Below are positions 7,734 to 28,208 of a stretch of DNA of 40,533 nt, one piece after another. Source of the DNA: an uncultured archaeon (lineage in GTDB: Archaea > Nanobdellota > Nanobdellia > Woesearchaeales > ARS49); the NCBI GenBank assembly GCA_902385765.1, contig CABMGU010000080.1, positions 1-40,533 on the forward strand. The letters are read 5' to 3'. The notes beneath the pieces were generated by a model. The model made no database searches. It was not told the DNA's origin and saw only the letters and a program-made list of their open reading frames with translations. Positions within the stretch are counted from its first letter, which is position 1; each line of letters begins with the position of its first letter. The position numbers and the translations under genes are program-made.

Positions 7734-8650
7734 TGAGAACGCTTGTTTTTCTTCTGATTTTGCTGGTTGCTTGTAGTTCAGCGCCTGTTGAAACTAAAGA
7801 GCCAGCGCCTCAGGTTGTTTCCCAGCCGAATGTTACTCCTCCTGTTGTACCGCCTCAGAAGCTTCTTGAGGATCCTGTTACGAGAACTGTGAAGCAGTCC
7901 GGCAGTCTTGGCACTTTTGTTTATGGTTTGTCTGAGGACAATCGTCTTTTGCGTGTTGAGAAGACCGGTGCTTTGTGGCAGTACCATTATGAGAATGGTA
8001 AGTTGTCAGCGATTACTGGTCCTCAGAATTATGAGTTCATTTACCTGCACGACCAATTGTCTGAAATCGAGTCTGGTCCTAACAAGTTGTTTTTCAAGTA
8101 TGATGACCGTGGCAGGCTGATTGAAGTTAAGGGTTTTCAGGAAACGCTTTACATGCAGTATGACAGTTTGAACCGTTTGCACGGCGTGAAGCGCGGTGTT
8201 GCCGGAGAAACTGTTTTTGATTATGATGATAAGGATCGTATCGAGCGCATTACCCGCGGTCCTGCAATCAACGTTTTCTATGATGATAAGAATAGGATTC
8301 GTAATTTTGATGCTGATGACACCAAGTTCATTATTGGTTATTGGCGTGATGACAAGGTTATTGCCCTGTCAGGAAAGACTTTCGGCATAGGGCTTTCAAC
8401 GAGTTATGGTCCTGATTATCCTCCTTTTGATGCAAAGCTGATTTTTGCTGAGGATGACAGTGATTTTACTGCAGCTTACACAGATACTTTGTACAAGGTG
8501 GTTGATGATTACATTTATTGCAAATACGTGCGCCGTTTGAAGGATGTTTCTTTTGACGGCACTAGTTATGCGTTTTTCAATAATTATTTCAAAAAGGGGT
8601 TGCCTGAGTATCTGGCAATGCAGTTTGAGTGTATTCCGTATGAAAACTGA
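7733..8650 (+). CDS. YD-repeat lipoprotein-like protein
   Basis: Lipobox-like LLVAC|SS. About six YD/RHS-type repeats (FKYDDRGRLIEVKG, FDYDDKDRIERITRG, FYDDKNRIRNF...). TGATG overlap with the upstream gene. Confidence 0.7.
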   Translation: MRTLVFLLILLVACSSAPVETKEPAPQVVSQPNVTPPVVPPQKLLEDPVTRTVKQSGSLGTFVYGLSEDNRLLRVEKTGALWQYHYENGKLSAITGPQNYEFIYLHDQLSEIESGPNKLFFKYDDRGRLIEVKGFQETLYMQYDSLNRLHGVKRGVAGETVFDYDDKDRIERITRGPAINVFYDDKNRIRNFDADDTKFIIGYWRDDKVIALSGKTFGIGLSTSYGPDYPPFDAKLIFAEDDSDFTAAYTDTLYKVVDDYIYCKYVRRLKDVSFDGTSYAFFNNYFKKGLPEYLAMQFECIPYEN

Positions 8651-8664
8651 TCGTGAATTAAAGT

Positions 8665-8748
8665 CCGCCGCGCCTGAGCAAGCTCAGGTTCATTTTGTCT
8701 CCCCTTGCAAGGCGTGGGGAGAGAAAATGAAGTCGAAGACCGCGGCGG
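8665..8748. other. GC-rich structured intergenic element
   Basis: An outer 8-bp pairing, ccgccgcg (8665-8672) with cgcggcgg (8741-8748), encloses two hairpins: cctgagc/gctcagg at 8673-8688 and tctcccc/ggggaga at 8698-8722. Confidence 0.3.
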
Positions 8749-8763
8749 GAATGAGGAATTATT

Positions 8764-9255
8764 ATGAATCATAAAGAAAAACCGCTGGCAGAGCTTACCT
8801 TGCGCAAGTACGAGAAGCCATATCGTTTGACTGGCAGGGAATTGGTCAAGAAGCTCTGCCTGAGTATTGGTCTTTTGCAGCCTGCTGATTCCAGAGATGC
8901 TGTTGTGGACGTGTTTATGTCGGTTTTGAAGGCTCCTGAGCCGGTTTCCTTGTCAGATATTGAAAAATATGTTAAAGTATCAAGGAAGACCTATAATTTG
9001 TCTATGAGCGGCATTGCTTCTTCTAATATCAGGAGGCAGTTAAAGCGTTTGAAGGATGCTTTTATTGTTGAAAAGCTCGGAAACGCTTATCGTATTGCTG
9101 AGGATACTCCTTTGCACGAGTTGTTTGCTGAGAAAATTGAAAAGTTTTATTTACCTGTTATTGTAGCAAGGGTGAAAGAGTATTGTGAAGCAGTTGAGCA
9201 AGAGAGGTGGAAACATGGATGTTCTGTGTCCGAAATGCAAAAATCCGATGAATAA
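8764..9255 (+). CDS. winged-helix-like DNA-binding protein (putative regulator)
   Basis: 163 aa. The segment SLSDIEKYVKVSRKTYNLSMSGIASSNIRRQLKRLKDAFIVEKLGNAYRI has a helix-turn-helix plus wing pattern. No specific family recognised. Confidence 0.5.
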   Translation: MNHKEKPLAELTLRKYEKPYRLTGRELVKKLCLSIGLLQPADSRDAVVDVFMSVLKAPEPVSLSDIEKYVKVSRKTYNLSMSGIASSNIRRQLKRLKDAFIVEKLGNAYRIAEDTPLHELFAEKIEKFYLPVIVARVKEYCEAVEQERWKHGCSVSEMQKSDE

Positions 9256-15383: not shown

Positions 15384-16307
15384 TCATCGCTTTCTTTTCT
15401 TCTGTTTCTTGAGTTCTTTCTCGAGTTCCAGTTTGTCTAGAAGTTCTTTGTAACGATTTCGGATTGTGACTTCAGTAACACCAGCCACATCAGCTACTTC
15501 TCTCTGTGTTCTTTTCTCGCCGTGCATTAATGCAGCAACGTAGAGCGCTGCAGCAGCTATTCCTGTTGGTCCTCTTCCTGATGTCAGCTCTGCGTGTTGT
15601 GCTTCCTCAAGGATTTCTACTGCTTTTGACTGCGTTTCTGCTGTCAACTTCAATGAGCTTGCGAATCTTGCTATGTAGTCTGCAGGATTGCTCGGCAATA
15701 TTGTGATTCCTAATTCTCTTGTTACGAACCTGTATGTTCTTCCTATTTCTTTTTTCTCGATTCCGGAAGCTTCAGAGAGTTCATCGAGTGTTCTTGGGAC
15801 TTCGTGGCGTCTGCACGCAGCATATAAAGCGCCGGAAACAACTGATTCCATTGATCTGCCTCTTACAAGTCCTTTCTGGACTGCTTGTGTGTATATCATT
15901 GCTGCTTCTTCTTCTACCATTTTTGGCAGTTTCAGGAAGCTTGATACTCTTTTGAGTTCAGCAAGCGCGAGTTTCAAATTTCTTTCTATTGCTGTTGAAA
16001 TTCTGTATTGCCATTTTCTTAATCTGAAGAATTTGTTTCTGTCCTTGCTTCCGAGCTGGAACAGGTCTGCTTTTTGCCCGACTTCTGTTCCGAGTCCCTG
16101 GTCGTACTGTGTGTACGTCATTGGCGCTCCTGTTCTTCGCAAACTCTCTCTTCCGCTGTCTTCTTCGTGTTCGCGCCATTCAGGGCCTGATTCTACCATC
16201 TTGTCTTCTATGACGAGTCCGCAGTCTTTGCAGATAATTTCCCCTTTATCACGGTTTACAAATAGGTTTATGCTTCCGCACTCTGTACACTTTTTGACGT
16301 AGTACAT
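15384..16307 (-). CDS. tfb: transcription initiation factor IIB (TFB)
   Basis: Zinc ribbon CTECGS...CKDCG, B-linker and two cyclin-like repeats. ATG is at 16307, preceded by aggtgggtgaa (SD-like); track start 16316 is GTG. Confidence 0.95.
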   Translation of the reverse strand: MYYVKKCTECGSINLFVNRDKGEIICKDCGLVIEDKMVESGPEWREHEEDSGRESLRRTGAPMTYTQYDQGLGTEVGQKADLFQLGSKDRNKFFRLRKWQYRISTAIERNLKLALAELKRVSSFLKLPKMVEEEAAMIYTQAVQKGLVRGRSMESVVSGALYAACRRHEVPRTLDELSEASGIEKKEIGRTYRFVTRELGITILPSNPADYIARFASSLKLTAETQSKAVEILEEAQHAELTSGRGPTGIAAAALYVAALMHGEKRTQREVADVAGVTEVTIRNRYKELLDKLELEKELKKQKKRKR

Positions 16308-16427
16308 TTCACCCACCTAAAGCCGCCATCCCCTCGTCGGAGAAAGCCAAAGTATATTTTCCACCACAATTAATTTTATATACTAGTGTTAGAAGTCATA
16401 TATAAAGCTTTCGGTTGTTTCAGTCGA

Positions 16428-17232: not shown

Positions 17233-17364
17233 ATGGAGCTTTTTGACGTTTTGGTGTGTCCTGATGACCGCACTAAATTAATATGCATGATTAACGCCCT
17301 GCATTGCCCCAAGTGCAAAAAGGTATATGAAATTAAAGAAAATATTCCTGTTTTAATTTCCTGA
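17233..17364 (+). CDS. trm112: Trm112-family small zinc-knuckle protein
   Basis: MELFDVLVCPDDRTKLICMINALHCPKCKKVYEIKENIPVLIS matches the L.CP......L.C..C...Y.I..GIP.L pattern. The track start upstream is not ATG. Confidence 0.7.
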   Translation: MELFDVLVCPDDRTKLICMINALHCPKCKKVYEIKENIPVLIS

Positions 17365-17796
17365 GCTGTCCGTGTAATTGCCTGGCAGGTTTATTACGTC
17401 TCCGCTTGAACTGTGGTATTTTGCTCCTGTGTCTCTTATTACTTTGTCCACTGTTGGCACGAATCCTGCCTGCCTCATCATTGCCGTGGTTCTTTCTGCA
17501 AGTGCGTCCTTTCCTGTTGCTGTTGTGTTTATCTGCGGGTATAGGTTTCCTGTTTTAGGTCCTGTTGCAGGTATTGCTTCTGTTCCTGTTGTTTGGATTT
17601 CTTTTAGCATTTCTGCTGCTGTTTTTCCTGTTTCAACTGTTGCTGGAGCTGTTGTTGGCACTCCTGCCACTGCTCCTGTTGGTCCTGATAGTTTTGGCGC
17701 CGTGTCTGGTATTGCAACTCTTTTTCCTGTGGTTTTTGAACCGCAGGCAACCAGTAGCATTAGAATCATGACCGCAATTATCAGTTCTTTTTTCAT
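17353..17796 (-). CDS. lipoprotein-like secreted protein, Thr/Gly/Ala-rich
   Basis: MKKELIIAVMILMLLVAC|GS contains a lipobox-like sequence. A TATA-like ctttaaatac lies about 27 nt upstream. Confidence 0.65.
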   Translation of the reverse strand: MKKELIIAVMILMLLVACGSKTTGKRVAIPDTAPKLSGPTGAVAGVPTTAPATVETGKTAAEMLKEIQTTGTEAIPATGPKTGNLYPQINTTATGKDALAERTTAMMRQAGFVPTVDKVIRDTGAKYHSSSGDVINLPGNYTDSSGN

Positions 17797-17849
17797 ACGG
17801 CGTTTACTGTCGCGGTAGTATTTAAAGATTTTGGGTTTTGAGTAGATGT

Positions 17850-19487
17850 TTATGAGCGCCTGGATTTTGGCTTTTTGCTTAGTTTTCTCACTGCTTTTTT
17901 CAGATTTTCGGTTTTCTTGAGTATTTCCTGCACTTCATCCATGTTGATTACAGGCTCTTCAGGCTTTGATGTTTTCCCGTTTTTTAATTGTGAGAACATT
18001 GCCTTGAAGATGAGCAGCAATATTACTCCGAGCGCTATCAGCATTGCAACTAATGAGGACGTGTCGCAGGTCATTTTGTTTAGTAATATCACGGCAAGCA
18101 CTGCTATGACCAGCACCCAGGTCATGAATTCCTTTGACCGCTTTCTCGAGAAATAATCTCCTATGTTTCTGAATATCGTATGGATTAACAGCAGTGCTAT
18201 AAGCATTATCGTGAGCAAATAAGTGGCGAAGCATACATAGCCCATCGGTTCGCTTTGTTTGAATATTGCATATATTTTATCGAATACTGCCGGCATTCTT
18301 TGTACCGGCGCTGGTGTTTGTCTTGACACTGCCGGAGTTTTTCTTGGACTGGCCGGAGGTGATTTTATCGGTCCTGTTTCGTTTGTTTTGTTTACTTCAG
18401 GTGGTACGAATATCAGTCCTCTGCCTCCGCTTCCTCCTCCTTTTCCTGGTCCGGCGCCATATGCTATTATCATGTCCGATTGATTTTGTGCTGTGTTTCC
18501 GTTGATGTCGTATGCTGTTGCGTATATGTCGTCGTGTCCTAATTCTGTTGTGTTTGTGAACAGAACTTCCCACAGTCCGGATGTTGCGTTGAATGTGGTG
18601 TTTAATTGGTAGACTGTTGGTCCTCTGGTGACGTTTATGAGCACCTGTGTTATTATTCCTGTTGCATTGGCTTGTATCAGTACAGGAGTGCCCGGCACGA
18701 ACTTTTGTCCTGTTGGGTAGACAATCGTGACTGTTGGGAAGAATATTCCAGGGTCGTCTATGTTATTGATGGTGATTATGTATGTCCCATTTGGTCTGTC
18801 GAGTGTTACTGGGTTGTCGAATGTGGTGATTTCTGAGTCAACAACGTCATACGAGGAGTTTCTTACGCCTACAATGATGGGTTTTTTGTTGTGGTAGTCA
18901 ATTGCGTATGTGTTGTTGTTCTGGTCAAGCGGGTATCTTACGTTTATCGTCAAATTAGTTGGTGTTGAATTTACAGGGTCTATTGTGAAGTTTCCTTTTA
19001 AGAAACCCGTGGCGTTTGTTAAGTTGTAAAATGCTACGCCAGTCATGTTTGAGTTGTTTGACACGCCAAAGTCTATTATCGCAGGATAGAATGATGTGAA
19101 CAGGCTAAAATCAGCGTCTACAACTGCGCATCCTGCGTTTATTTTTGATGCGACCATTTGCACTGGCTGGACTCCTATGCTCAGGTTGTTGGCTCCTACA
19201 AGTATGTACAGTGACAGGTAATTGTTCAGTAAATCATTCGAAGGGTCTCCTGAGCACAGTTCTGCGTAGACGTTGTCATTTGTTACTGAGTTGTCGACGT
19301 ATGCGGTTGAATAATTGTCCAGGAATACTTTTGCGGTTGTCCCGTTTGGAAAGACGAGTCTTCCTGATGTGATTGCGTTGAATCCGAAAGCTCCTGTTAT
19401 CTCATTTGAACGCAGGACAAATACTGCAGCTATCGCTATTGCGAGCGCGATGACTGCAATTATGTGCTGTTTTCCTATTTGAGCCAC
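17850..19487 (-). CDS. surface/membrane protein, sequon-rich, with C-terminal multi-TM region and Lys-rich tail
   Basis: 545 aa with a GTG start that overlaps the upstream gene by 13 nt. It has an N-terminal hydrophobic helix, many N-x-S/T sequons, and three C-terminal hydrophobic helices. Confidence 0.7.
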   Translation of the reverse strand: MAQIGKQHIIAVIALAIAIAAVFVLRSNEITGAFGFNAITSGRLVFPNGTTAKVFLDNYSTAYVDNSVTNDNVYAELCSGDPSNDLLNNYLSLYILVGANNLSIGVQPVQMVASKINAGCAVVDADFSLFTSFYPAIIDFGVSNNSNMTGVAFYNLTNATGFLKGNFTIDPVNSTPTNLTINVRYPLDQNNNTYAIDYHNKKPIIVGVRNSSYDVVDSEITTFDNPVTLDRPNGTYIITINNIDDPGIFFPTVTIVYPTGQKFVPGTPVLIQANATGIITQVLINVTRGPTVYQLNTTFNATSGLWEVLFTNTTELGHDDIYATAYDINGNTAQNQSDMIIAYGAGPGKGGGSGGRGLIFVPPEVNKTNETGPIKSPPASPRKTPAVSRQTPAPVQRMPAVFDKIYAIFKQSEPMGYVCFATYLLTIMLIALLLIHTIFRNIGDYFSRKRSKEFMTWVLVIAVLAVILLNKMTCDTSSLVAMLIALGVILLLIFKAMFSQLKNGKTSKPEEPVINMDEVQEILKKTENLKKAVRKLSKKPKSRRS

Positions 19488-21184
19488 CTCACTGCTGTTG
19501 CGAGTGACCTGTATGCGAGGTCAAGTGCTTCTTTTACGAGCAGGTTTTGGTTTATTACGGTCTTGCTGTTTTCTTCTGTGGCGTTGGGGCTTCTTGGCGT
19601 CATGTTTACGAGCACGAAGCTGAAATTGCTTTGTTTTGAGTTGTTGAAGTACATTTGCAGTTCTGCCCCTGTTGTTATGTTGTATATTTTGAAGTAGATT
19701 GAGTGGTTGCCCACGTATGATGACAAATTCAGGTAAGAGTATTCCGGCTCATATAGTTTTGTTCCTGTTGGCACGACTGCGAATGTTATGTATCCTGTGT
19801 TGTCTGTTGTGACGACTGATGTTGATTTTGCTATGACTCCGCTTTTTCCTGTGTTCAAAGTGTACAGCTGTGTCGGCGAGAATATGCTCATTCCGTTTTC
19901 TTCTGTGAGCCTGAGCTCTACCGGCGGTGTGAGCCCGTCGCTGTCTACCATGTAAACTGTCAAATTGTATGGTTCTCCCGCGTCAGGGAAAATGTTTGTC
20001 TCTACTCCATCTATCCATACTTTCGGTATGTAGACAAGTTCTGTTGAGAATGTTCCTGTGCCGTTGTCGTTTCCGTCGTCGCAGTCTGCTATTCCTGCTT
20101 CAACGTCCAATGGGTGTCCGATGATTGTTGTTGTTCCTGAAGGTATTCCTGTTGTGTTCCAGAGGCAGGTTGATGTGTATTTTGATGCTCCTGCCGCCAA
20201 TGGCGCTGTCAGCGTGACGTTGCATAAGTTTGTTGCTCCTACGAACATCTGGACATCGAAATTGGTTGTTATGTCTACTGTGTTGGTGTTTGTCACGAAT
20301 GCTGACAGGTTGACTATTGTGCCTTTTGGTGCGACGCTCGGGACTACTGAGACATAAGATACATCCGCGTCTGGTCCGATGCAGTACGGGACTCCGAATC
20401 CGTTTATGACTGAGTATCTTGTGAAGTTCACGCTGTCTGACGGTCCTATGATTCCTGTGAATACGCTTACTCCTCCTGCGTCAACGCTTGTTCGTACTGC
20501 TCCGCTGCAGTTTGCTCCCTGGTCGTCTGTGCACGAGCCTACGAGCAGTTTTGTGCTTGCTGTCTGGCTGACTAAAGGGTTTGTTGCTGTTGCATCTATT
20601 GTGACGTTTCCCGTGGCCGGGTTATAGGTTGACTGCACGTCATTTCTTGAGTACCCGTATGGGAGGTAGCCGTTTGTTGATGGGACTGCTACGACGGTGT
20701 CGTTTGCGTCAATAATTTCGCCGTCGTCTCCGTCTTCGTCGATTCCAACGAATATTTTTGCAGGGTACGGGCTTCTTCCCGCATAGAATTCGAAGTTGGC
20801 GTCAGCGCAGAATTTTCCTGCATACGCGAACGGCGCTCCGAATGAAACGTATCGTGCAACTGTGTCTCCTCCGAGTATGTCGTAGATGAATATCGTGGCG
20901 TTGTTTGGCGCCATCACGTAGAATGCTGCTGCTGCTTTTCCTGCAAGGTCTGCTGCAAGGTCTGCGCACACTCTTAGTTTTGTGTCAGGCGTTATTCCAA
21001 CGTTGTCTTTGTATCCGCCTCCTTTATCATAATAATACACGTTTTGTGTTACGTTGTTGTCAACTCTTACTATTGATGCGTTTATGTATCCTGCTTGAAC
21101 GCTGAAGGAGAGAGCTATCGCTAGGACTGATGCAATGCAGACTGCAAGCAATAATCTTTTGTATGCAGTCTGCGGTTTTTTCAT
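19475..21184 (-). CDS. secreted surface protein with CARDB-like Ig-fold segment
   Basis: ATG at 21184 is preceded by taaaggaggc (a strong SD). Signal-like KRLLLAVCIASVLAIALSFSVQA. The segment VSVVPSVAPKGTIVNLSAFVTNTNTVDITTNFDVQMFVG...LAAGASK looks CARDB-like. Confidence 0.7.
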   Translation of the reverse strand: MKKPQTAYKRLLLAVCIASVLAIALSFSVQAGYINASIVRVDNNVTQNVYYYDKGGGYKDNVGITPDTKLRVCADLAADLAGKAAAAFYVMAPNNATIFIYDILGGDTVARYVSFGAPFAYAGKFCADANFEFYAGRSPYPAKIFVGIDEDGDDGEIIDANDTVVAVPSTNGYLPYGYSRNDVQSTYNPATGNVTIDATATNPLVSQTASTKLLVGSCTDDQGANCSGAVRTSVDAGGVSVFTGIIGPSDSVNFTRYSVINGFGVPYCIGPDADVSYVSVVPSVAPKGTIVNLSAFVTNTNTVDITTNFDVQMFVGATNLCNVTLTAPLAAGASKYTSTCLWNTTGIPSGTTTIIGHPLDVEAGIADCDDGNDNGTGTFSTELVYIPKVWIDGVETNIFPDAGEPYNLTVYMVDSDGLTPPVELRLTEENGMSIFSPTQLYTLNTGKSGVIAKSTSVVTTDNTGYITFAVVPTGTKLYEPEYSYLNLSSYVGNHSIYFKIYNITTGAELQMYFNNSKQSNFSFVLVNMTPRSPNATEENSKTVINQNLLVKEALDLAYRSLATAVRWLK

Positions 21185-21197
21185 TCTTTTGCCTCCT

Positions 21198-22370
21198 TTA
21201 TTGTATGTATTTTGTGACGCGGTCATATAATACCAGCACTTTTTCGCTGAATCCTTCCACTTCTCCTTTGTTGTAGACTATTTGCACAGGTGCTGGTGGT
21301 GGAAGGTCTCTGTCGACATTGAACACTTTTGTGAATACAGCTGTGCCGTTTGGCAGTGTTGCCTGTATTGTTACTGAGTAGTTTCCGATTGCCTGCTCTA
21401 CTTGAATGTCAGGGAATCCTGATGTCGGTACAATCGTGAACAGCACGTTGCCGTTGCTGTCTGTGTATGTTGTGCCCAGGATGTAGTTTGATACGTTTGT
21501 TGTTGCGCCTGTTGCAGTGTATTGTATTAATGCCCAGTGCAGCAGTCCTGATACTTCCTGCAATTCAACCGTTGCATTTGGTATTCCTGCCAGTGTTGTG
21601 CTGTTTTTTACTGTGATATTGAATCCTGTTGGCTGTCCGGAGGACAGGTTCACGTTTGCTCCTACAGATGTGCCGTTGCTGTAAATTATTATGTCGTGGT
21701 TTATTCCTGCTGTGTTCGTGCCGATTCTTGAGCGTGATATCCTGTCGAATACTGTGAGGATTCTTTCGTTTGTTCCTTCAACGTTTGGCTTGTTTACTGT
21801 TATGTTTCCTCTTGGGAATGCTGGTGGGGGCGCCCTGTTTATTACTGTGAATGTTTTTGTGCCTTTTACTACTCCTGCTACAACTGCGTAAAAGTTGATT
21901 GTGTAATTGAATGGCGCTCCGTATGATGGTTCTCCTCCTGTTGGAACGTGCGTGTACGAGATGTTTCCTCCTGGTCCTGTTCTGACTGTTGAGTATACGC
22001 AGTTAGTGACGTTTGACTGTATTGACTGTATTAGTGCGAATGGCGCTATGCCGTTGCATTCTTCTCCGATGATTTCAACTCCTGGCGCTGGTGCGTTGTT
22101 TATTCTTACTATTGCTGTGACGTTGTATGTCTCTCCTGCGTTTGTCATATTGTATGTTTCTACGCCGTCTATTAGTATGATAAACTCGAATGCTCCTTCG
22201 AAATTTATTACTCCGTACCCGTATTGGGTGTCGTGCATTCCTGTGAGGTTTTGTTCTTTTGGTGATGTTAGATAGAGAGCTCCGCCTACTGCTAACGCTA
22301 TTATAATCGCTATTACAGCCTGTCGTTTAGCCGTGACTCTACTTTTAGTCACGTGTTTGTGTTTCTTCAT
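21198..22370 (-). CDS. secreted surface protein (shares a domain with 19475-21184)
   Basis: ATG at 22370 (22373 is GTG). N-terminal helix AVIAIIIALAVGGALYL. IDGVETYNMTNAGETYNVTAIV parallels IDGVETNIFPDAGEPYNLTVYM in the next gene. Confidence 0.7.
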   Translation of the reverse strand: MKKHKHVTKSRVTAKRQAVIAIIIALAVGGALYLTSPKEQNLTGMHDTQYGYGVINFEGAFEFIILIDGVETYNMTNAGETYNVTAIVRINNAPAPGVEIIGEECNGIAPFALIQSIQSNVTNCVYSTVRTGPGGNISYTHVPTGGEPSYGAPFNYTINFYAVVAGVVKGTKTFTVINRAPPPAFPRGNITVNKPNVEGTNERILTVFDRISRSRIGTNTAGINHDIIIYSNGTSVGANVNLSSGQPTGFNITVKNSTTLAGIPNATVELQEVSGLLHWALIQYTATGATTNVSNYILGTTYTDSNGNVLFTIVPTSGFPDIQVEQAIGNYSVTIQATLPNGTAVFTKVFNVDRDLPPPAPVQIVYNKGEVEGFSEKVLVLYDRVTKYIQ

Positions 22371-22438
22371 CACGTCTTTTCGCGTATGCTATTGTGACGC
22401 AACTGCTATTAAAAAGATTTCGCTTTTTTATATATGAA

Positions 22439-22768
22439 TTATATCTCTACGAGAACGTGGCTCTTATCTTCAGGTCTGATGCGTACTTTGCCGCCTTTTT
22501 TTAGCTTTAGGAATTCAGCTAATGGCTTGTGAATGCGGACTATAAGGCTGTCTCCTGCTTGCCCTATTGTGGTTTCTGCTTCCAGCCCCCACAGGCCTTT
22601 TTGTTTTGCCACAACGTCAATTTCTTCAGATGCCTTTTCATCAAAGAACTTTTCGTGGCAGATATTGCAGATTTCTGCATCAAACATTCCAAGAGGCACG
22701 CCGTATAAAGAGAATTCTGTTTTTTGCTTCTTAAGCATTCCTTTCCCGCATAAATAACATTTTGTCAT
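22439..22768 (-). CDS. antitoxin-like protein: YgiT/MqsA-type zinc finger fused to AbrB/SpoVT-like domain
   Basis: CYLCGKG...CNICHEKFF forms the zinc finger. The C-terminal DSLIVRIHKPLAEFLKLKKGGKVRIRPEDKSHVLVEI looks like a swapped-hairpin domain. It has a 1-nt overlap with the upstream toxin-like ORF. Confidence 0.65.
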   Translation of the reverse strand: MTKCYLCGKGMLKKQKTEFSLYGVPLGMFDAEICNICHEKFFDEKASEEIDVVAKQKGLWGLEAETTIGQAGDSLIVRIHKPLAEFLKLKKGGKVRIRPEDKSHVLVEI

Positions 22769-22962
22769 TATCTCACTTTTACGGTTTTTATTATGTATTT
22801 GCCGCCGCGCACCGTGTATGCGACTTCCAGGTACGCATAGACAGCCAAAAAGCCGTCGGTTTGCCTTACTGTTGCTCCTTGTTTGATTGCGCGTTTTATT
22901 TGTTCGCAGGTAATGGCTTTTTCTGCCATTCGTATTTTTGCGTGTTCCGTGAGAATGATCAC
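22768..22962 (-). CDS. DUF4258-like small toxin-like protein
   Basis: IILTEHAKIRMAEKAITCEQIKRAIKQG...YIIKTVKV fits the HA..RM..R.I pattern. The GTG start is preceded by aaggaggg, with tttatatat further upstream. Confidence 0.6.
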   Translation of the reverse strand: MIILTEHAKIRMAEKAITCEQIKRAIKQGATVRQTDGFLAVYAYLEVAYTVRGGKYIIKTVKVR

Positions 22963-23086: not shown

Positions 23087-23539
23087 TTACGCCGTCTTTT
23101 TTCTCATCAGCAAATAACTTGTTCCCAATAGTGCGATTATTGCGAGTATTGTCTGCCACCAGGGGAATTTGGTCTTGTTCTGTATTTGTATCACTTGTAC
23201 TGTTGGCTCCTGCATCGGGTATGCGATTTGGCGCACTTGTGCTTCAGGATAAGCGTATTGTGTTTCTTGCCGTATTGGGCTTTCTTGTTGTATTTCAGGT
23301 TGTTGTATCGGCTGTCTATCGTATTGTGCGTCTCTGTAGTATCTGCCTCCTGACCCTCCTCCGCCCGCTGGTGTTGGAGTCGGTGTTGGCTGGGGGCTTG
23401 GTATGAATCTTATTGTTGCAACTCCTTGCTGCGTGTTATAGCCCGTATAGTCCGGTTCTTTTGGCAGCGAGAGAAAGTACATTGTTGCAATTAGGACTGT
23501 AAACAAAAGTAGTATGAATGCTGTTTTGTTGTGCGTCAC
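23087..23539 (-). CDS. bitopic protein with Pro/Thr and Gln-rich middle and C-terminal helix plus basic tail
   Basis: GTG start. N-terminal helix AFILLLFTVLIATMYFL. Ends KFPWWQTILAIIALLGTSYLLMRKKTA. Confidence 0.6.
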   Translation of the reverse strand: MTHNKTAFILLLFTVLIATMYFLSLPKEPDYTGYNTQQGVATIRFIPSPQPTPTPTPAGGGGSGGRYYRDAQYDRQPIQQPEIQQESPIRQETQYAYPEAQVRQIAYPMQEPTVQVIQIQNKTKFPWWQTILAIIALLGTSYLLMRKKTA

Positions 23540-23547
23540 GTCTTTTT

Positions 23548-24054
23548 TTATGGGATTAAGTGTACTTCGAGTGTTCCTCTTTGCTGTCCTGCTGTCAAAT
23601 TCTTGCCTATTGGTAGTTTCATTGTTAGTTTAAGCGTGATGTTTTCTCTTGGTCCGAGTGTCGTTTCTGCTGGTTCGATTGTTAAAAATTGTGCTATGTA
23701 TCCTGTGGCATTGGCTTTCATTGTTACTGGAGCATTCCATATGTTTTCTACACCAAGCTCAGTTGTCAGGTTTAGTCCTGGTGATAATTGGTAGAAGTAT
23801 ATTCCTCCTGTAGGATATATTATATATTTTGCTGCTTTTGTAGTGTTGCTGTATCCGAGTGCTTCCTCCATTGTGAGGTTTCTGTCGGTTACTATGTCAA
23901 GGTATAGCCAGTGGCTTGCTACGATTGTTCTTGGCGCATACCAGTATTTGTATCCTTGGTATGCTGTATAGCCCGCGGTTATTACCAGTAATGCTATTAA
24001 GACTATTAGTGCTTTATTGCCGTGTTTTTGGTGGTGTTGGTTGTGGGATTTCAT
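23548..24054 (-). CDS. N-anchored secreted protein, sequon-rich
   Basis: 168 aa beginning MKSHNQHHQKHGNKALIVLIALLVITAGY, with several N-x-T sequons. Confidence 0.6.
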   Translation of the reverse strand: MKSHNQHHQKHGNKALIVLIALLVITAGYTAYQGYKYWYAPRTIVASHWLYLDIVTDRNLTMEEALGYSNTTKAAKYIIYPTGGIYFYQLSPGLNLTTELGVENIWNAPVTMKANATGYIAQFLTIEPAETTLGPRENITLKLTMKLPIGKNLTAGQQRGTLEVHLIP

Positions 24055-25249
24055 TTTGTGGCTCCTTTGGTCTTTTTGCCAAAAAATTTCCTAGCGCGAA
24101 TGCAAATACTACAAAGCTGGCGATTAGCAGGAGTATTAAAAAGATTTCGCTTCTGGACTTCTCAATTTGTGCTGGCAGTGGTAATTGTTCTTCCGGTCCT
24201 TGCTGTTCTTCTGTTCCTCCTAATATCTGTCTGAATGTTGATTTTTTCGTTGTTATCGGAGAGCCTTCGATTTCTGCATGTATGTGCTCTGTTACTCTTA
24301 TGTTCTTGGCGTCTATCTTCAGCAGTCCTGGGTATGTTCCGCTGCCTCCCTCCTTTGCTGTTGTCTTGAATGTCAGTGTGTTTTCTCCCGGGTATATCAT
24401 TATCTGCTGTTCAGTTGATAATAGTTCTAATAGTGAAATTCCCACTGTTGCGTTTATTGGTGATTCCCAGTTGGTTATGTTAAACGTGACTGTTATATTG
24501 TTTTCCTTGTTTGCCTTGATTTTTGTCGGTATTTGCACTGCTTCTATTTTTGGCGTGCCTACTGTGATTTCTGTTTCTCTTGTTTCTTTTTCTATTCTTG
24601 TTTGCAGTTTATAGTATCCTGATTGGTTTGTTATTCCTATTTTGTCATTATATACTGTTAGCGCGTATGGCTGCAGGTTTCCAAGGTCTTTCTTGGTGCT
24701 GTTGACGAATTCGTCATTGAGGTAGACTGAGGTTATGATTTCCGCGTTTTTCAGTATTTTTTTCCCTATGTTTTGGATTGTTGACCTGTATTTTATGCTG
24801 TCTTTTTTTTGTGCGCTGTCCGTCATTAATTCGAGATAGGGATGTCCTTCAGGGTATGGGCTTATTATTTTTATTGAGTCCTGCGCTCCTGTTGTTCCTG
24901 ACATTCCTCCTTCCTCATTTTTCTGTTTCACAAAGACCGTTATTCTGTATACCCCGAATGGCAGTGAGTCCGGCATTGTCAGGTTTATGTAAAAGTCTCC
25001 TGTTGCGAATGGCGCTAATTTTATCTGTTCTGCTGACTTTTTTAGGTATTTTTCCAGCTCCTTGTTCGTGTTTATTACTATGAGTATTGTTGCTGGTTGT
25101 GATGAGGCGCTTCCTGTGGAGTATTTGAATGTAATGTTTTTTCCCGGCTCATATATGATTTGGTTGTCTCTAACTAGTGAGAGGCTTATTGCTGTTACTG
25201 TTGGAATTAGTAGAATGAAGAATAATGTTAGCAATAAGACTTGTTTCAT
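24014..25249 (-). CDS. secreted protein with C-terminal hydrophobic helix
   Basis: Signal-like MKQVLLLTLFFILLIPTVTA. C-terminal IFLILLLIASFVVFAFALGNFLAKRPKE is followed by a Pro-rich tail. Confidence 0.65.
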   Translation of the reverse strand: MKQVLLLTLFFILLIPTVTAISLSLVRDNQIIYEPGKNITFKYSTGSASSQPATILIVINTNKELEKYLKKSAEQIKLAPFATGDFYINLTMPDSLPFGVYRITVFVKQKNEEGGMSGTTGAQDSIKIISPYPEGHPYLELMTDSAQKKDSIKYRSTIQNIGKKILKNAEIITSVYLNDEFVNSTKKDLGNLQPYALTVYNDKIGITNQSGYYKLQTRIEKETRETEITVGTPKIEAVQIPTKIKANKENNITVTFNITNWESPINATVGISLLELLSTEQQIMIYPGENTLTFKTTAKEGGSGTYPGLLKIDAKNIRVTEHIHAEIEGSPITTKKSTFRQILGGTEEQQGPEEQLPLPAQIEKSRSEIFLILLLIASFVVFAFALGNFLAKRPKEPQNEIPQPTPPKTRQ

Positions 25250-25287
25250 AGAATATAAGAAAAAAATAAAAGAATAAAAATGTTTGC

Positions 25288-26121
25288 TTACGAACAGTCT
25301 GCTGAACTGCTGTAGCTGTTGTTATACATTGTCTTTGTTATCTCAAAGGCTATTGTTGAACCGTTTCTGAGCTGGTGCAGTACGTCTTCATTGTTTACGA
25401 GTATCTCGAAGCACTCGCAGAGGCATTGTCCTGATGTGTCGAACCATTTGCATTCTGTTATTGGTCCGCCGGCTATAGTCTTCTCACATTCGTCAGTGTT
25501 TTTACAGTTGTTGCAGTCCGGTTGGCATCCTTTTCCTGCGTCGTTGTCTGTGCAGTTGAATAACTGGTCAAATATGCGGATGCTGGTGTTTGTTACTCCA
25601 TCAAGTGTCATGTTGTTCAGTGTTGCGTTCAGTGCTCCTTCTGCTCCGTAGTTGTATATGACAAATGCTCCGTCATTAGCGCCTGTTGACGCACAGGATG
25701 CTGCATCTGTTACAGCTCCTTCGTCGCAAGTGATACCTGCTCCTTCACCAGTCTGGTTGCAGGTGAACAATACTATGTCGCTGACGTTTTGTTCTAGTGT
25801 TGCGTTGCATACTATTGTGCTTTTCATCATTCTGAGGTCAAAGACTCGTTGGTTTGTGATTGTTCCTGTTCCTGTTTGTGATGTGTCCATTCCTGTGATT
25901 CCTCTTCCGATTATTCTGAATGGTTTTGTGACTTCTGCAAGTTTGCTGAAGAACGGTGGTGTCCACGCGGTTATTTGTGGTGCGCTGTAACCTCCGCCTA
26001 CGTATACTACGCTTGTTTCATTGCCTGCCATTGATGTAAAGTAGAGTCCTACTACGCCTACCAATACAACGGCTAACAATACTCCGTATATTCCTACCGT
26101 GTGTGAATCCATTTTTTTCAT
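25288..26121 (-). CDS. N-anchored Cys-rich secreted protein
   Basis: N-terminal helix VGIYGVLLAVVLVGVVGLYF and C-terminal Cys cluster CQPDCNNCKNTDECEK...CKWFDTSGQCLCEC. ATGA overlap with the upstream gene. Confidence 0.65.
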   Translation of the reverse strand: MKKMDSHTVGIYGVLLAVVLVGVVGLYFTSMAGNETSVVYVGGGYSAPQITAWTPPFFSKLAEVTKPFRIIGRGITGMDTSQTGTGTITNQRVFDLRMMKSTIVCNATLEQNVSDIVLFTCNQTGEGAGITCDEGAVTDAASCASTGANDGAFVIYNYGAEGALNATLNNMTLDGVTNTSIRIFDQLFNCTDNDAGKGCQPDCNNCKNTDECEKTIAGGPITECKWFDTSGQCLCECFEILVNNEDVLHQLRNGSTIAFEITKTMYNNSYSSSADCS

Positions 26122-26345
26122 TCCTCCGTTTTTTTGAATCTTATTATTCCTTTTCCTACAGCATCTTGTTCTGGTTCTGCTGGTTTGAAGCCGAATGCTT
26201 GTTCATAGAATTTTTCTGCTGTTTTTGGCTTTGCTAAGTTAAAGGTCAAAAAGCCTGCCACCAGTAATGCCGTTACTATTAATATAAAAAACGCTATTGT
26301 GTATTTTCTGTTTGTCTCCATTATTCGACCTCTTTGATTTCTCAT
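26118..26345 (-). CDS. small N-anchored membrane protein
   Basis: 75 aa (or 67 aa from the second Met), with helix YTIAFFILIVTALLVAGFLTF. Confidence 0.5.
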   Translation of the reverse strand: MRNQRGRIMETNRKYTIAFFILIVTALLVAGFLTFNLAKPKTAEKFYEQAFGFKPAEPEQDAVGKGIIRFKKTEE

Positions 26346-26363
26346 TCAATATAGTTTTACTAT

Positions 26364-27254
26364 TTAAAGCTTTCCATCATACTTTACTGTCATTTTTGGA
26401 TACGTTATCCAGAAATATACTAGGAAATACATTACGAACAATATCCATCCTGCGTTTGTGTGGAATCCTTTCATTGCGAATTCTGGCGACCAGTTTGCTC
26501 CTATGTAGAATAATAGGTAAAGTCTTAGGAAAGCAACTATGAACATTCCTACTGCGCCTAATAGATACACCCACAGCATTGTTTTTTTGTTGATTTTTTT
26601 CCAGTCAAGCGCGAGTACGAATATGAATAGTCCTGTGAATAGTATTAGTGAGGTTATTCCTGTGCAAGGCGGTCCTATTACTGCGCTGAAACTGTCTGCA
26701 GTGACTGATGGCGCATTATTTATCGTTATTGTTACGTTGTTTGTCAGCGACAGTAGCATTGTCAGTGGTTTTGCCAGTGCTCTTGTGAGAGGGTAGCCTG
26801 CAAGGCTTAGTGCTGTTGAGCCTGCACCGTACAGTACTATTATTACTAAGGAGAGTACGATTTGTTTTATGTGCGTTTTGACGAATTTTGTGTTGAATAC
26901 TGCCAGTAGCAGTAAGATGCCTCCAACTGCGTACAGAGCAAATCCTGTCAGCATATGCGCCAGCCCGCTTGTCCAGTATTGTTTTTGTTGCAGTATGTAT
27001 GCTGTGAAGAAGCTGTATGCCAAAATTCCAAATAGTATTGTTTGTTTCCAGTTTGTTGTATAGTTGAACTTTTTGAGCTCGTCTCTTTTTATTAAAACAA
27101 ATGTTGCGAGCATTCCTGCGAATATTATTGGTATGTATAGCACGCTTATCGTCATTTGAGGTTTTGTGCCGATTCTGTAGACTGCCAGTGGCACTATCAT
27201 ATACAGTAGAACGAGAAATATTGTCAGCCGTGTTATGAATGGTTTCCAGCTCAT
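26364..27254 (-). CDS. archaeosortase/exosortase-family-like polytopic membrane protein
   Basis: 296 aa, hydrophobic throughout. Three motifs occur in order: VIGPPCTGITSLILF (Cys), FIVAFLRLYLL (Arg) and KGFHTNAGWILFVMYF (His), as in the catalytic triad of this family. Confidence 0.6.
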   Translation of the reverse strand: MSWKPFITRLTIFLVLLYMIVPLAVYRIGTKPQMTISVLYIPIIFAGMLATFVLIKRDELKKFNYTTNWKQTILFGILAYSFFTAYILQQKQYWTSGLAHMLTGFALYAVGGILLLLAVFNTKFVKTHIKQIVLSLVIIVLYGAGSTALSLAGYPLTRALAKPLTMLLSLTNNVTITINNAPSVTADSFSAVIGPPCTGITSLILFTGLFIFVLALDWKKINKKTMLWVYLLGAVGMFIVAFLRLYLLFYIGANWSPEFAMKGFHTNAGWILFVMYFLVYFWITYPKMTVKYDGKL

Positions 27255-27421
27255 TCTCTTATCTTGCTGACCTGTTCTTTCGTCAGTTTTACTTTTTTTG
27301 CGTTTTGTATTTGTGCGTTGATGAATTTTGCCTGCATTTGCGACCAGTCATTATTGTTCACTACATAGTTTGCCCACTTGTCAACAAAGAATTCTTTGAG
27401 CGAGTATGGTTTGCCGTGCAT
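27251..27421 (-). CDS. hypothetical small protein (56 aa), not in ORF track
   Basis: My translation is MHGKPYSLKEFFVDKWANYVVNNNDWSQMQAKFINAQIQNAKKVKLTKEQVSKIRE. It starts 1 nt after the upstream stop and overlaps the sortase-like ATG in ATGA. Confidence 0.35.
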   Translation of the reverse strand: MHGKPYSLKEFFVDKWANYVVNNNDWSQMQAKFINAQIQNAKKVKLTKEQVSKIRE

Positions 27422-27422
27422 T

Positions 27423-28001
27423 TTAAAATTCCTCTCTGAATAATTTTTTATATTTTTCTATTTTCGTCTTGTCAAGATTCTCGAATACTGTGCTTAAGTG
27501 TTTTGCATCTAATAAATCTTTTTCGGATTTCGCGATTTCTTGTTTGTATGCTATGGTGCTTTCAATGCTTGCCATCCATAAAATGTGGGTGTTGAAAATG
27601 ATTTTTATTTTGTCATCGAACAGTCTGCGCTGGCTCATTTTTTTGGGCAATTTCATGTCCAGGCGCAAAAGCGGGAATTCCTTTTCCCAAACGCTGATTG
27701 GAGTTCCCTGTTGCAGGTATTCGCGGTAAAGTTCTTCTGGATTGTCTATGTTCCATTCGAAGCCTTTTTTCAGGAAATCTTCATACATTTCCCTGAATTT
27801 GTCCAGGGTGATTTCTTTGATGAACATATCCACGTCTTCGGATGCCCTGCTTCTTCCGAAGAATATTGCCACATAACCGCTCACAATTACATAGTCTGCG
27901 TATTTCGAGATTATTTCTGTTGTTTTCAGGACAAATTTGTCAATGTCGTTCAGTTCTTTTGTTAATTTTAGTTCTCTGTTTACTATCTGGAATTTGACCA
28001 T
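27423..28001 (-). CDS. nucleotidyltransferase-fold protein (minimal NTase/AbiEii-like)
   Basis: VSGYVAIFFGRSRASEDVDMFI fits the G[SG]-x(10-14)-D-x-D signature. A TATA-like tttatatat lies about 27 nt upstream. Confidence 0.5.
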   Translation of the reverse strand: MVKFQIVNRELKLTKELNDIDKFVLKTTEIISKYADYVIVSGYVAIFFGRSRASEDVDMFIKEITLDKFREMYEDFLKKGFEWNIDNPEELYREYLQQGTPISVWEKEFPLLRLDMKLPKKMSQRRLFDDKIKIIFNTHILWMASIESTIAYKQEIAKSEKDLLDAKHLSTVFENLDKTKIEKYKKLFREEF

Positions 28002-28062
28002 GTGTCCATTATGCTTTTGCAGCTTTATATATCTTGTGCGGGCTTGTCCAGTGAGCGCAAAC

Positions 28063-28072
28063 GTTTTTAAAG
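28063..28072 (+). promoter_or_regulatory. TATA-like box about 28 nt upstream of tRNA-Ser
   Basis: The element gtttttaaag lies at the expected spacing upstream of the tRNA 5' end. Confidence 0.4.
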
Positions 28073-28095
28073 CAGGCAGATAGAATTTATTGCAT

Positions 28096-28192
28096 GCGGC
28101 AGTGGCACAACCTGGTTACTGCGCGGGTCTCGAATGTCCGAGAGCTAACCCGTTTCCGCAAGGATATCCCGGTTCAAATCCGGGCTGCCGCG
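28096..28192 (+). tRNA. tRNA-Ser(CGA) with about 12 extra nt in the anticodon arm (probable intron at 37/38)
   Basis: Acceptor stem gcggcag/ctgccgc plus discriminator g. D-loop contains GG. Anticodon stem cgggt/acccg encloses ctCGAa + tgtccgagagct + a. The 15-nt variable arm indicates a class II tRNA. T-arm is cccgg-ttcaaat-ccggg. A TTTTT run follows. Confidence 0.75.
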
Positions 28193-28208
28193 TTTTTCAA
28201 GAGCTATG

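Follow-up and report, generated by a model that had tools for sequence, protein, structure and literature searches.

The window analysed here, the 40,533-nt contig CABMGU010000080.1 of an uncultured archaeon of the Woesearchaeales, carries a hydrophobic open reading frame (ORF) of 296 aa at 26364-27254 which, judged by its sequence, is a genuine archaeosortase: a divergent, polytopic, cysteine-type enzyme of a DPANN lineage. In the explanation that we regard as probable, this enzyme belongs to a lineage acting on PEF-type C-terminal tails and heads a clade-specific surface operon, upstream of which an unrelated module has been inserted. What is new is that the enzyme and the tails found with its relatives fall below every curated subclass cut-off, and that, throughout the close clade, the enzyme gene is in every case followed by a five-gene cassette; as a lineage-specific enzyme/tail pair and operon, the system is modestly new.

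In profile hidden Markov model searches, the 296-aa protein passed the cut-offs of two curated family models, TIGR04178 (45 bits; cut-off 23; E = 1e-11) and PF09721 (34.9 bits; cut-off 25.7; E = 1.4e-8). A hydropathy scan gave 7-8 hydrophobic segments for the protein and its orthologues, and the motifs VIGPPCTGITSL, VAFLRLYLL and KGFHTNAGW are present in it, holding Cys197 (codon 26664-26666), Arg244 (codon 26523-26525) and His265 (codon 26460-26462) in the expected order. Cys, Arg and His are the suspected triad of the exosortase/archaeosortase family (10.1101/2023.06.07.544157), and Cys173 and Arg214 of Haloferax ArtA are essential (PMC9263693). It turned out that all three residues are invariant in 17 database relatives and also in 59 distinct archaeal and bacterial relatives from the fetched loci, the bacterial ones coming from Acidobacteriota, Pseudomonadota and Planctomycetota; the Cys and His motifs had entered the patterns with which these loci were retrieved, and the Arg had not. 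The preliminary description, which had proposed an archaeosortase from the hydrophobic character and the order of the three residues, is thus borne out. An unrelated polytopic membrane protein holding Cys, Arg and His by chance, as the hydrophobicity throughout, the subclass models that were not reached and the absence of a solved structure matched by sequence might suggest, is refuted and has almost no probability left, in view of the two family-model scores and of invariant columns that are common to bacterial exosortase relatives.

No cut-off of a named subclass was reached by the window enzyme, and the models of ArtA, B, D, E and other named subclasses gave no match at E <= 1. The top raw NCBIfam score, 48 bits over the shared core with a cut-off of 150, belonged to exosortase E (XrtE, TIGR04162), a fusion protein of bacteria whose profile is 516 positions long and whose VPEID tails were seen in no locus. 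The ArtC model (TIGR03762; cut-off 100 bits) was matched by 9 of the 11 DPANN enzymes tested, and no other archaeal subclass model was matched: the window enzyme scored 34.5 bits, eight of ten other DPANN relatives 35-67 bits, and the remaining two had no match at E <= 0.001. A sequence search of all chains of the Protein Data Bank (PDB) with the enzyme returned nothing usable.

Relatives of the locus were collected by protein look-up together with genome and metagenome scans, and are cited by locus number (L001 and so on). We refer to the loci whose enzyme is 47-81% identical to that of the window as the close clade; two short ones were contributed by the metagenome scan, and the closest public enzyme (81% identity) comes from the Woesearchaeota metagenome-assembled genome (MAG) JAPLZR01. 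This match puts the host in the Woesearchaeota/Nanoarchaeota group, and a TFB gene at 15384-16316 of the window marks it as an archaeon. To find candidate signals, we looked among all ORFs near the enzyme's relatives for those that end in a helix and basic residues, and classic PEF tails came up. Within the close clade, L004/L005, L006, L009 and L120 (L120 is from the same species as L001 and L002) have the gene of a ~540-aa secreted protein directly upstream of the enzyme gene, and its tail reads VPEFS(L/I)TTLLLA.LLAGGLVLFVVRR(R/K). The same kind of large tail protein adjoins more distant enzymes in L014 and L023. Four of the large PEF-tail proteins are 21-28% identical overall, with the last 27 residues nearly the same. 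When the scan was anchored at stop codons, about 25 of the fetched loci from DPANN relatives turned out to have PEF tails, often on small proteins arrayed in tandem; no bacterial locus had any. In a rough neighbour-joining tree, drawn without support values, enzymes associated with PEF tails occur throughout the DPANN clade, with the clade of the window nested among them. An alignment of PEF proteins used as a query confirmed one locus, a confirmation that used the unrelated body of its first sequence. The string "SPEF" within the enzyme itself was rejected as a sorting tail: the tail scan had picked it up falsely, and it lacks conservation.

We also ran a DNA pattern for AGG(L/F)(V/I)xFVVRR, that is, the helix end with the PEF motif excluded, over 185,579 species genomes, and got ten matches where about two were expected by chance. 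Seven of the ten are true C-terminal VPEFS tails and the other three are bacterial and spurious. These seven tails are confined to four MAGs, each of which also holds a related archaeosortase, at one locus per MAG. The tail-bearing MAGs are JAPLZR01, JAHWHB01 (two tails), JBFYLW01 (four tails) and DATDPK01; in the closest MAG, the PEF tail is on another contig than the enzyme (L126). The seven proteins are 415-567 aa long, two of the ORFs being cut by contig ends, and the full-length ones have signal peptides. The tails are 85% identical, end 2-5 residues past RR and have P-E-F-S invariant, while the bodies without the tail show no detectable similarity for nearly all pairs (blastp E > 0.01).

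The published attributes of a tripartite signal are a C-terminal position, several occurrences per genome, at least three invariant motif residues, a hydrophobic helix and a basic cluster, on carriers that have an N-terminal signal peptide and are otherwise unrelated (10.1101/2023.06.07.544157); the VPEFS tails of the relatives show these attributes. PEF-CTERM is the signal with which ArtC is paired (PMC5244752), and the VPEFS tails appear to be a lineage-specific flavour of PEF because the curated PEF-CTERM model scores them below its cut-off. The cognate signal is therefore probably not a new class. That it would be an undescribed one had been claimed from viewing one window alone, and the claim is not supported, given the PEF-type tripartite tail on a large secreted protein beside the enzyme in close-clade loci, the PEF tail of the closest MAG and the PEF tails that accompany the archaeosortase lineage across DPANN.

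Several points weigh against this reading. The 40.5-kb window has no ORF with a PEF tail, and its subclade (window, L007, L008, L121) is without the pair of a kinase and a PEF protein at the ancestral site. The PEF-CTERM model (TIGR03024) gives the tails 10.6-11.9 bits with a cut-off of 23, and has no match at all for three large tail proteins; the ArtC score of the window enzyme given above lies far below its cut-off as well. What links the enzyme to the tails is their neighbourhood and co-occurrence, and a second archaeosortase paralogue is possible because the MAGs are incomplete. That the five cassette proteins may be partners or extra substrates of the enzyme is a proposal. Besides, we know of no activity data for archaeosortases other than ArtA.

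As we picture it, the main substrates of the enzyme would be secreted proteins like those of the relatives, ending in V-P-E-F-S, a helix TTLLLA.LLAGGLVLFVV and RR(R/K). By analogy with Haloferax ArtA, Cys197, helped by Arg244 and His265, would cleave at or near the motif, so that the helix and basic tail would be removed and the protein probably left on a lipid anchor; the chemistry of both cleavage and anchoring is borrowed from that enzyme. In the small clade of the window, the enzyme gene would be the first of a conserved operon with five surface proteins (75, 277, 411, 168 and 150 aa), predicted to be membrane-tethered and heavily N-glycosylated. The operon would form one cell-surface module, whose members might work with the enzyme as partners or extra substrates, and a small module of a nucleotidyltransferase (NTase)-like and a 56-aa protein would have been inserted between tRNA-Ser and the enzyme, at a site which collects toxin-antitoxin-like modules in relatives.

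Besides exosortase E and the one-to-one and sortase-pilin systems treated elsewhere in the text, two known systems are close enough for comparison. ArtC/PEF-CTERM of methanogens and anaerobic methanotrophic (ANME) archaea belongs to the same superfamily with the same Cys, Arg and His, and the tails of the relatives here likewise have P-E-F directly before the helix, a terminal Arg/Lys cluster and carriers with signal peptides. It differs in the low scores (the tails of relatives reach about 11-12 bits of the 23), in the almost fixed tail helix of the close clade, in the DPANN host, in the enzyme heading a five-gene cassette and in the window being free of PEF tails. ArtA/PGF-CTERM of Haloferax volcanii shares the polytopic enzyme with conserved Cys and Arg. 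ArtA needs this Cys and Arg for activity and recognises a tripartite signal, and its substrate is a major glycosylated surface protein, whose processing is linked to lipid anchoring (PMC9263693, PMC6098224). In contrast to ArtA, whose model does not match the window enzyme, the motif here is PEF instead of PGF, and PssA, PssD and other lipid genes were not seen in the window, the mechanism being carried over by analogy.

Several observations concern the surroundings of the relatives' enzymes. A Ser/Thr kinase of 937-997 aa always stands 5' of the large PEF-tail protein (L004 1338-4151, L009 137-3130, L120 1-2788), with TPR repeats recorded in L004 and L120; this pair of kinase and PEF protein is missing from the window. 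Within a few kb of distant archaeosortase relatives, small proteins with (I/V)PEFG/S tails form tandem arrays of three to seven; they measure about 140-260 aa, apart from one in L022 with 374 aa. Such arrays lie in loci L022 (11081-15279), L072 (about 8096-9079), L074, L078 and L088. Another DPANN subclade has a protein of 100-125 aa with TGG(I/L)N..N(V/I)W, a helix and basic residues, which ends at the enzyme's start codon or overlaps it (L026 9592-9969, L027 9421-9798, L031 9080-9457, L034 9129-9428, L038 5212-5529) and may be a dedicated partner of its archaeosortase. What's more, DPANN-type archaeosortases, some of them with PEF tails, were found on contigs labelled Patescibacteria, Kerfeldbacteria or Methanosarcinales (L021, L039, L050 and many loci titled "uncultured Methanosarcinales"); mis-binning or mislabelling of these contigs is likely, and gene transfer is possible.

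Downstream of the enzyme, the order enzyme, 75, 277, 411, 168, 150 aa is the same in all close-clade loci long enough to show it, with protein sizes of 62-75, 277-300, 402-413, 158-172 and 150-257 aa. Orthologues of the 75-aa protein, 62-72 aa long, lie directly 3' of the enzyme in L001, L004, L006, L007, L010 and L121, the 277-aa protein is conserved in all close-clade loci, the 168-aa protein has orthologues in L001, L004, L006, L010, L119 and L121, and those of the 150-aa protein (151-257 aa) occupy the same position in L001, L006, L010, L119 and L121. L121 matches the layout of the window up to its contig end, and among the shared features are a 388-aa protein and a small pair of inserted genes. 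The conserved gene neighbourhood expected in the preliminary description holds for this downstream order, at 47-81% enzyme identity, and fails for the pair of genes upstream. All eight minus-strand ORFs of the row described there were found at the same positions, and their spacings are right except that a 41-nt overlap had gone unmentioned; counted from upstream to downstream, the first, third, fifth and seventh junctions are gaps of 1, 18, 38 and 8 nt, the second and fourth are ATGA overlaps and the sixth is the 41-nt overlap. The overlap at the fourth junction exists if the 277-aa ORF starts at its first Met, three codons before the start given by public gene calls. As a single unit of eight genes, however, the row does not stand, since its first two genes (NTase and 56 aa) are not conserved with the remaining six.

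As had been seen before, each of the five proteins encoded downstream has a basic stretch and a single hydrophobic helix at its N-terminus, and their richness in N-x-S/T sequons could be confirmed at the level of the whole set: the eight surface ORFs (the five of the cassette and those of 391, 583 and 545 aa) have 3.1 sequons per 100 aa vs 0.24 for the other window proteins that served as a comparison, namely the archaeosortase, a transporter and six soluble enzymes. The counts are 10 for the 277-aa and 6 for the 168-aa protein, both about 4 standard deviations above composition shuffles, two for the 150-aa protein and none for the 75-aa protein. No significant family came out of Pfam, NCBIfam or PADLOC searches with the cassette proteins, the 56-aa ORF or a 64/109-aa pair further downstream. 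An AlphaFold model of the 277-aa protein, made with 10 sequences, failed (predicted local distance difference test, pLDDT, 38). The model of the 411-aa protein (pLDDT 79) has a signal peptide, three immunoglobulin (Ig)-like beta-sandwich domains, a disordered linker and a C-terminal helix; we assign no function to it because Foldseek matched generic Ig, ASH, macroglobulin and WxLIP folds alone, with template modelling (TM) scores below 0.4.

The earlier statement that none of these proteins ends in a recognisable sorting signal is right for the PGF, PEF, PIP and VPXXXP types and wrong in so far as the 411- and 150-aa proteins do have helix plus basic tails. At its C-terminus, the 411-aa protein has a conserved helix (residues 369-392; 24071-24145), KR and a basic, Pro-rich tail, and the 150-aa protein has a motif, a helix and a basic tail, KFPWWQ-TILAIIALLGTSYLL-MRKKTA. 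Among orthologues, these tails are more identical than the ectodomains (74% vs 40% for the 411-aa protein; 65% vs 45% for the 150-aa protein). FPWW stands just before the helix and is invariant in 6 orthologues of 150-257 aa with very different ectodomains, and among 120 loci the FPWW-type tail is confined to the 150-aa gene family; the PGF and PEF models match it weakly, covering the helix and basic part alone. With its motif, helix, basic residue, leader and constant operon position, and with 24-32 residues after the helix in three orthologues, the FPWW tail is a candidate for a second, dedicated sorting signal, or else for a stable anchor.

If it were a signal, the operon could be a dedicated system with a new signal of its own, in which the 150-aa protein is the real or an additional substrate, and maybe the 411-aa protein too, and which builds an archaeosortase-dependent surface structure comparable to the Gram-positive sortase-pilin operons. 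One-to-one systems are recognised by a regular neighbourhood of enzyme and target (10.1101/2023.06.07.544157), and the 150-aa protein, which has an N-terminal hydrophobic leader, is always co-operonic with the enzyme and fits this rule. Its invariant FPWW abuts a helix that is conserved too and is followed by a basic residue, and the paralogous cassette in L010 has VPKWY, a helix and WKITRKKA at its end. As in the sortase-pilin operons, the enzyme is co-operonic with a secreted Ig-domain protein ending in a helix and basic tail, the 411-aa protein, whose layout of signal peptide, Ig-like domains, linker, helix and basic tail is like that of sortase substrates. However, the long K/R/P-rich stretches past the helix in three 150-aa orthologues are more typical of a stable type-I anchor, aromatic residues are common at membrane interfaces, the helix of the 411-aa protein is not preceded by a motif with Pro or Gly, and a clear, many-target set of PEF-type substrates exists for the same enzyme lineage. 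We therefore think this reading unlikely and regard the tails of the 150- and 411-aa proteins as candidate processing sites. To a combination of both, with a genome-wide PEF set and a co-operonic, so far undescribed FPWW (P-x-W-W/Y) signal as two kinds of target, possibly also the 411-aa Ig protein, and a surface structure assembled from them, we give a slightly smaller chance still; if true, such a two-target operon would be an archaeal counterpart of sortase-built pili on a DPANN cell, perhaps for host attachment.

Incidental adjacency, in which the enzyme and the glycoprotein genes merely stand side by side in a variable island of surface-protein genes and are not coupled in function, might be read from the several toxin-antitoxin-like modules inserted in the region and its lineage-specific glycoproteins, from the cassette that duplicates without the enzyme in L010 and from the more distant relatives of the enzyme, which lack the cassette. 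It is very improbable, as the five-gene order with its short or overlapping junctions is kept at 47-81% enzyme identity while the upstream side varies freely, and the 277-aa family is about as rare as the close clade of the enzyme (17 representatives at 50% identity clustering among 1.84 billion proteins, vs 14 clusters at 90% identity).

Like the surface operon, the inserted module of the explanation we prefer can be judged by comparison with relatives, where the gap from tRNA-Ser to the archaeosortase differs in each case (window 27251-28193; L002, L004, L006, L007, L009, L120, L121). In L007, 80 nt separate tRNA-Ser(CGA) from the enzyme with nothing between, and L121 has no NTase upstream of the enzyme. 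The modules found there are PIN, two NTases and HEPN in L002 and L120, and HicB and HicA in L006, while L004 has the order tRNA-Ser, NTase, 56-aa gene, kinase, 549-aa PEF-tail protein, enzyme. Because the upstream content varies, and because L007 and L121 lack the pair, we see the NTase and 56-aa genes as an insertion at a hot spot; going by this comparison of gene orders, they are an inserted small module beside a tRNA and not partners of the archaeosortase. Their partnership, put forward when the locus was first described, is contradicted both by their absence from the closest relatives L007 and L121 and by L004, where the kinase and PEF-tail genes stand between the pair and the enzyme. About 55 nt 5' of the archaeosortase start codon, L007 (about 1545-1623) and L121 have a TATA-like TTTAAAAAT; in the window (27225-27310), this stretch is replaced by the coding end of the 56-aa gene, whose stop overlaps the enzyme start (ATGA). 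The 192-aa NTase-like ORF matched DUF2204 weakly (E = 0.075; 13.1 bits; cut-off 20.3), had no usable match among PDB chains and none in PADLOC, and holds a G-x-S...D-x-D-like stretch, GRSRASEDVDMF.

The literature that could be searched gave no link between archaeosortases and Woesearchaeota or other DPANN archaea. To our knowledge, experimental work on archaeosortases is confined to haloarchaea, with ArtA the sole one studied, and the surface of Woesearchaeota and other DPANN cells is little known. With this locus, a clade of DPANN archaeosortases can be defined together with a variant of the PEF-type tail, both of which current curated models miss, and new profile models could therefore annotate many DPANN surface proteins. 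It also puts forward the ~540-aa PEF-tail proteins as candidates for major envelope proteins, and its compact operon offers a place to test for an enzyme acting with dedicated partners.

Table. Features of the archaeosortase locus and its surroundings in the window
Feature	Position	Strand	Basis or remark
Archaeosortase, 296 aa, about 8 transmembrane segments	26364-27254	-	TIGR04178 and PF09721
Cassette gene 1, 75 aa, one N-terminal helix, conserved C-terminal ...GKG.I.FKKTEE	26118-26345	-	Orthologues
Cassette gene 2, 277 aa (274 from second Met), N-terminal helix, Cys-rich C-terminal domain	25288-26121	-	Close-clade conservation
Cassette gene 3, 411 aa, signal peptide, three Ig-like domains, C-terminal helix	24014-25249	-	Model and orthologues
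Cassette gene 4, 168 aa, N-terminal helix, conserved last strand ...G.L.V.LIP	23548-24054	-	Orthologues
Cassette gene 5, 150 aa, N-terminal helix, Pro/Gly-rich linker, motif, helix and basic tail	23087-23539	-	Orthologues
FPWW tail of the 150-aa protein, FPWWQ-TILAIIALLGTSYLL-MRKKTA then stop	23087-23167	-	6 orthologues
Inserted pair, 192-aa NTase-like and 56-aa protein	27251-28001	-	Absent in L007, L121
tRNA-Ser(CGA), conserved upstream limit of the locus	28095-28193	+	Same tRNA in L007, L004
Second inserted pair, 64-aa DUF4258-like and 109-aa zinc-ribbon protein	22439-22962	-	In L121; half in L119
391-, 583- and 545-aa glycoproteins and 147-aa lipobox protein	17353-22373	-	Further same-strand surface genes
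TFB gene	15384-16316

Some minor features of the cassette and its neighbours were noted in addition. In L010, a second, diverged copy of the cassette (3960-6720; 67, 204, 376, 140 and 143 aa) directly follows the first without a second archaeosortase, and its profiles match those of the first gene by gene. A strand-like motif G-x-G-x-(I/V)-x-F occurs just past the N-terminal helix in the 150-aa (23400-23450) and 391-aa (22200-22260) families and also at the C-terminal end of the 75-aa family (26118-26160), for which a donor-strand role is conceivable. Type IV pilin N-termini (class III signal) were considered for the cassette proteins and dropped because the K/R-G cleavage motif is unconserved among orthologues.

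At the tRNA side, relatives show a further small module in the gap between tRNA-Ser and the enzyme, a pair of 189 and 154 aa. The tRNA-Ser(CGA) itself is 98-99 nt long in the window and L007 (1447-1544) and 86 nt in L004 (128-213), and the longer form may contain a short intron or insertion. On the other side, between the 150- and 391-aa genes, the 64-aa ORF (24 bits to DUF4258, just below the cut-off of 25) and the 109-aa zinc-ribbon ORF (22439-22962) overlap by 1 nt, and this pair looks like another insertion of toxin-antitoxin type. The 391-, 583- and 545-aa glycoproteins (17850-22373), with 15-21 sequons each, are restricted to the subclade of the window (L119, L121); they were rejected as a third cassette copy, the one match found being a weak N-terminal one of the 150-aa profile to the 391-aa protein. 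The 545-aa protein has three helices at its end and a weak PrgI-like match (E = 0.0045). Finally, the 147-aa protein (17353-17796) has a lipobox (LLVAC, then GSKTTGKRVAIP), is kept after the cassette in L001, L006 and L010, and is a candidate archaeal lipoprotein.

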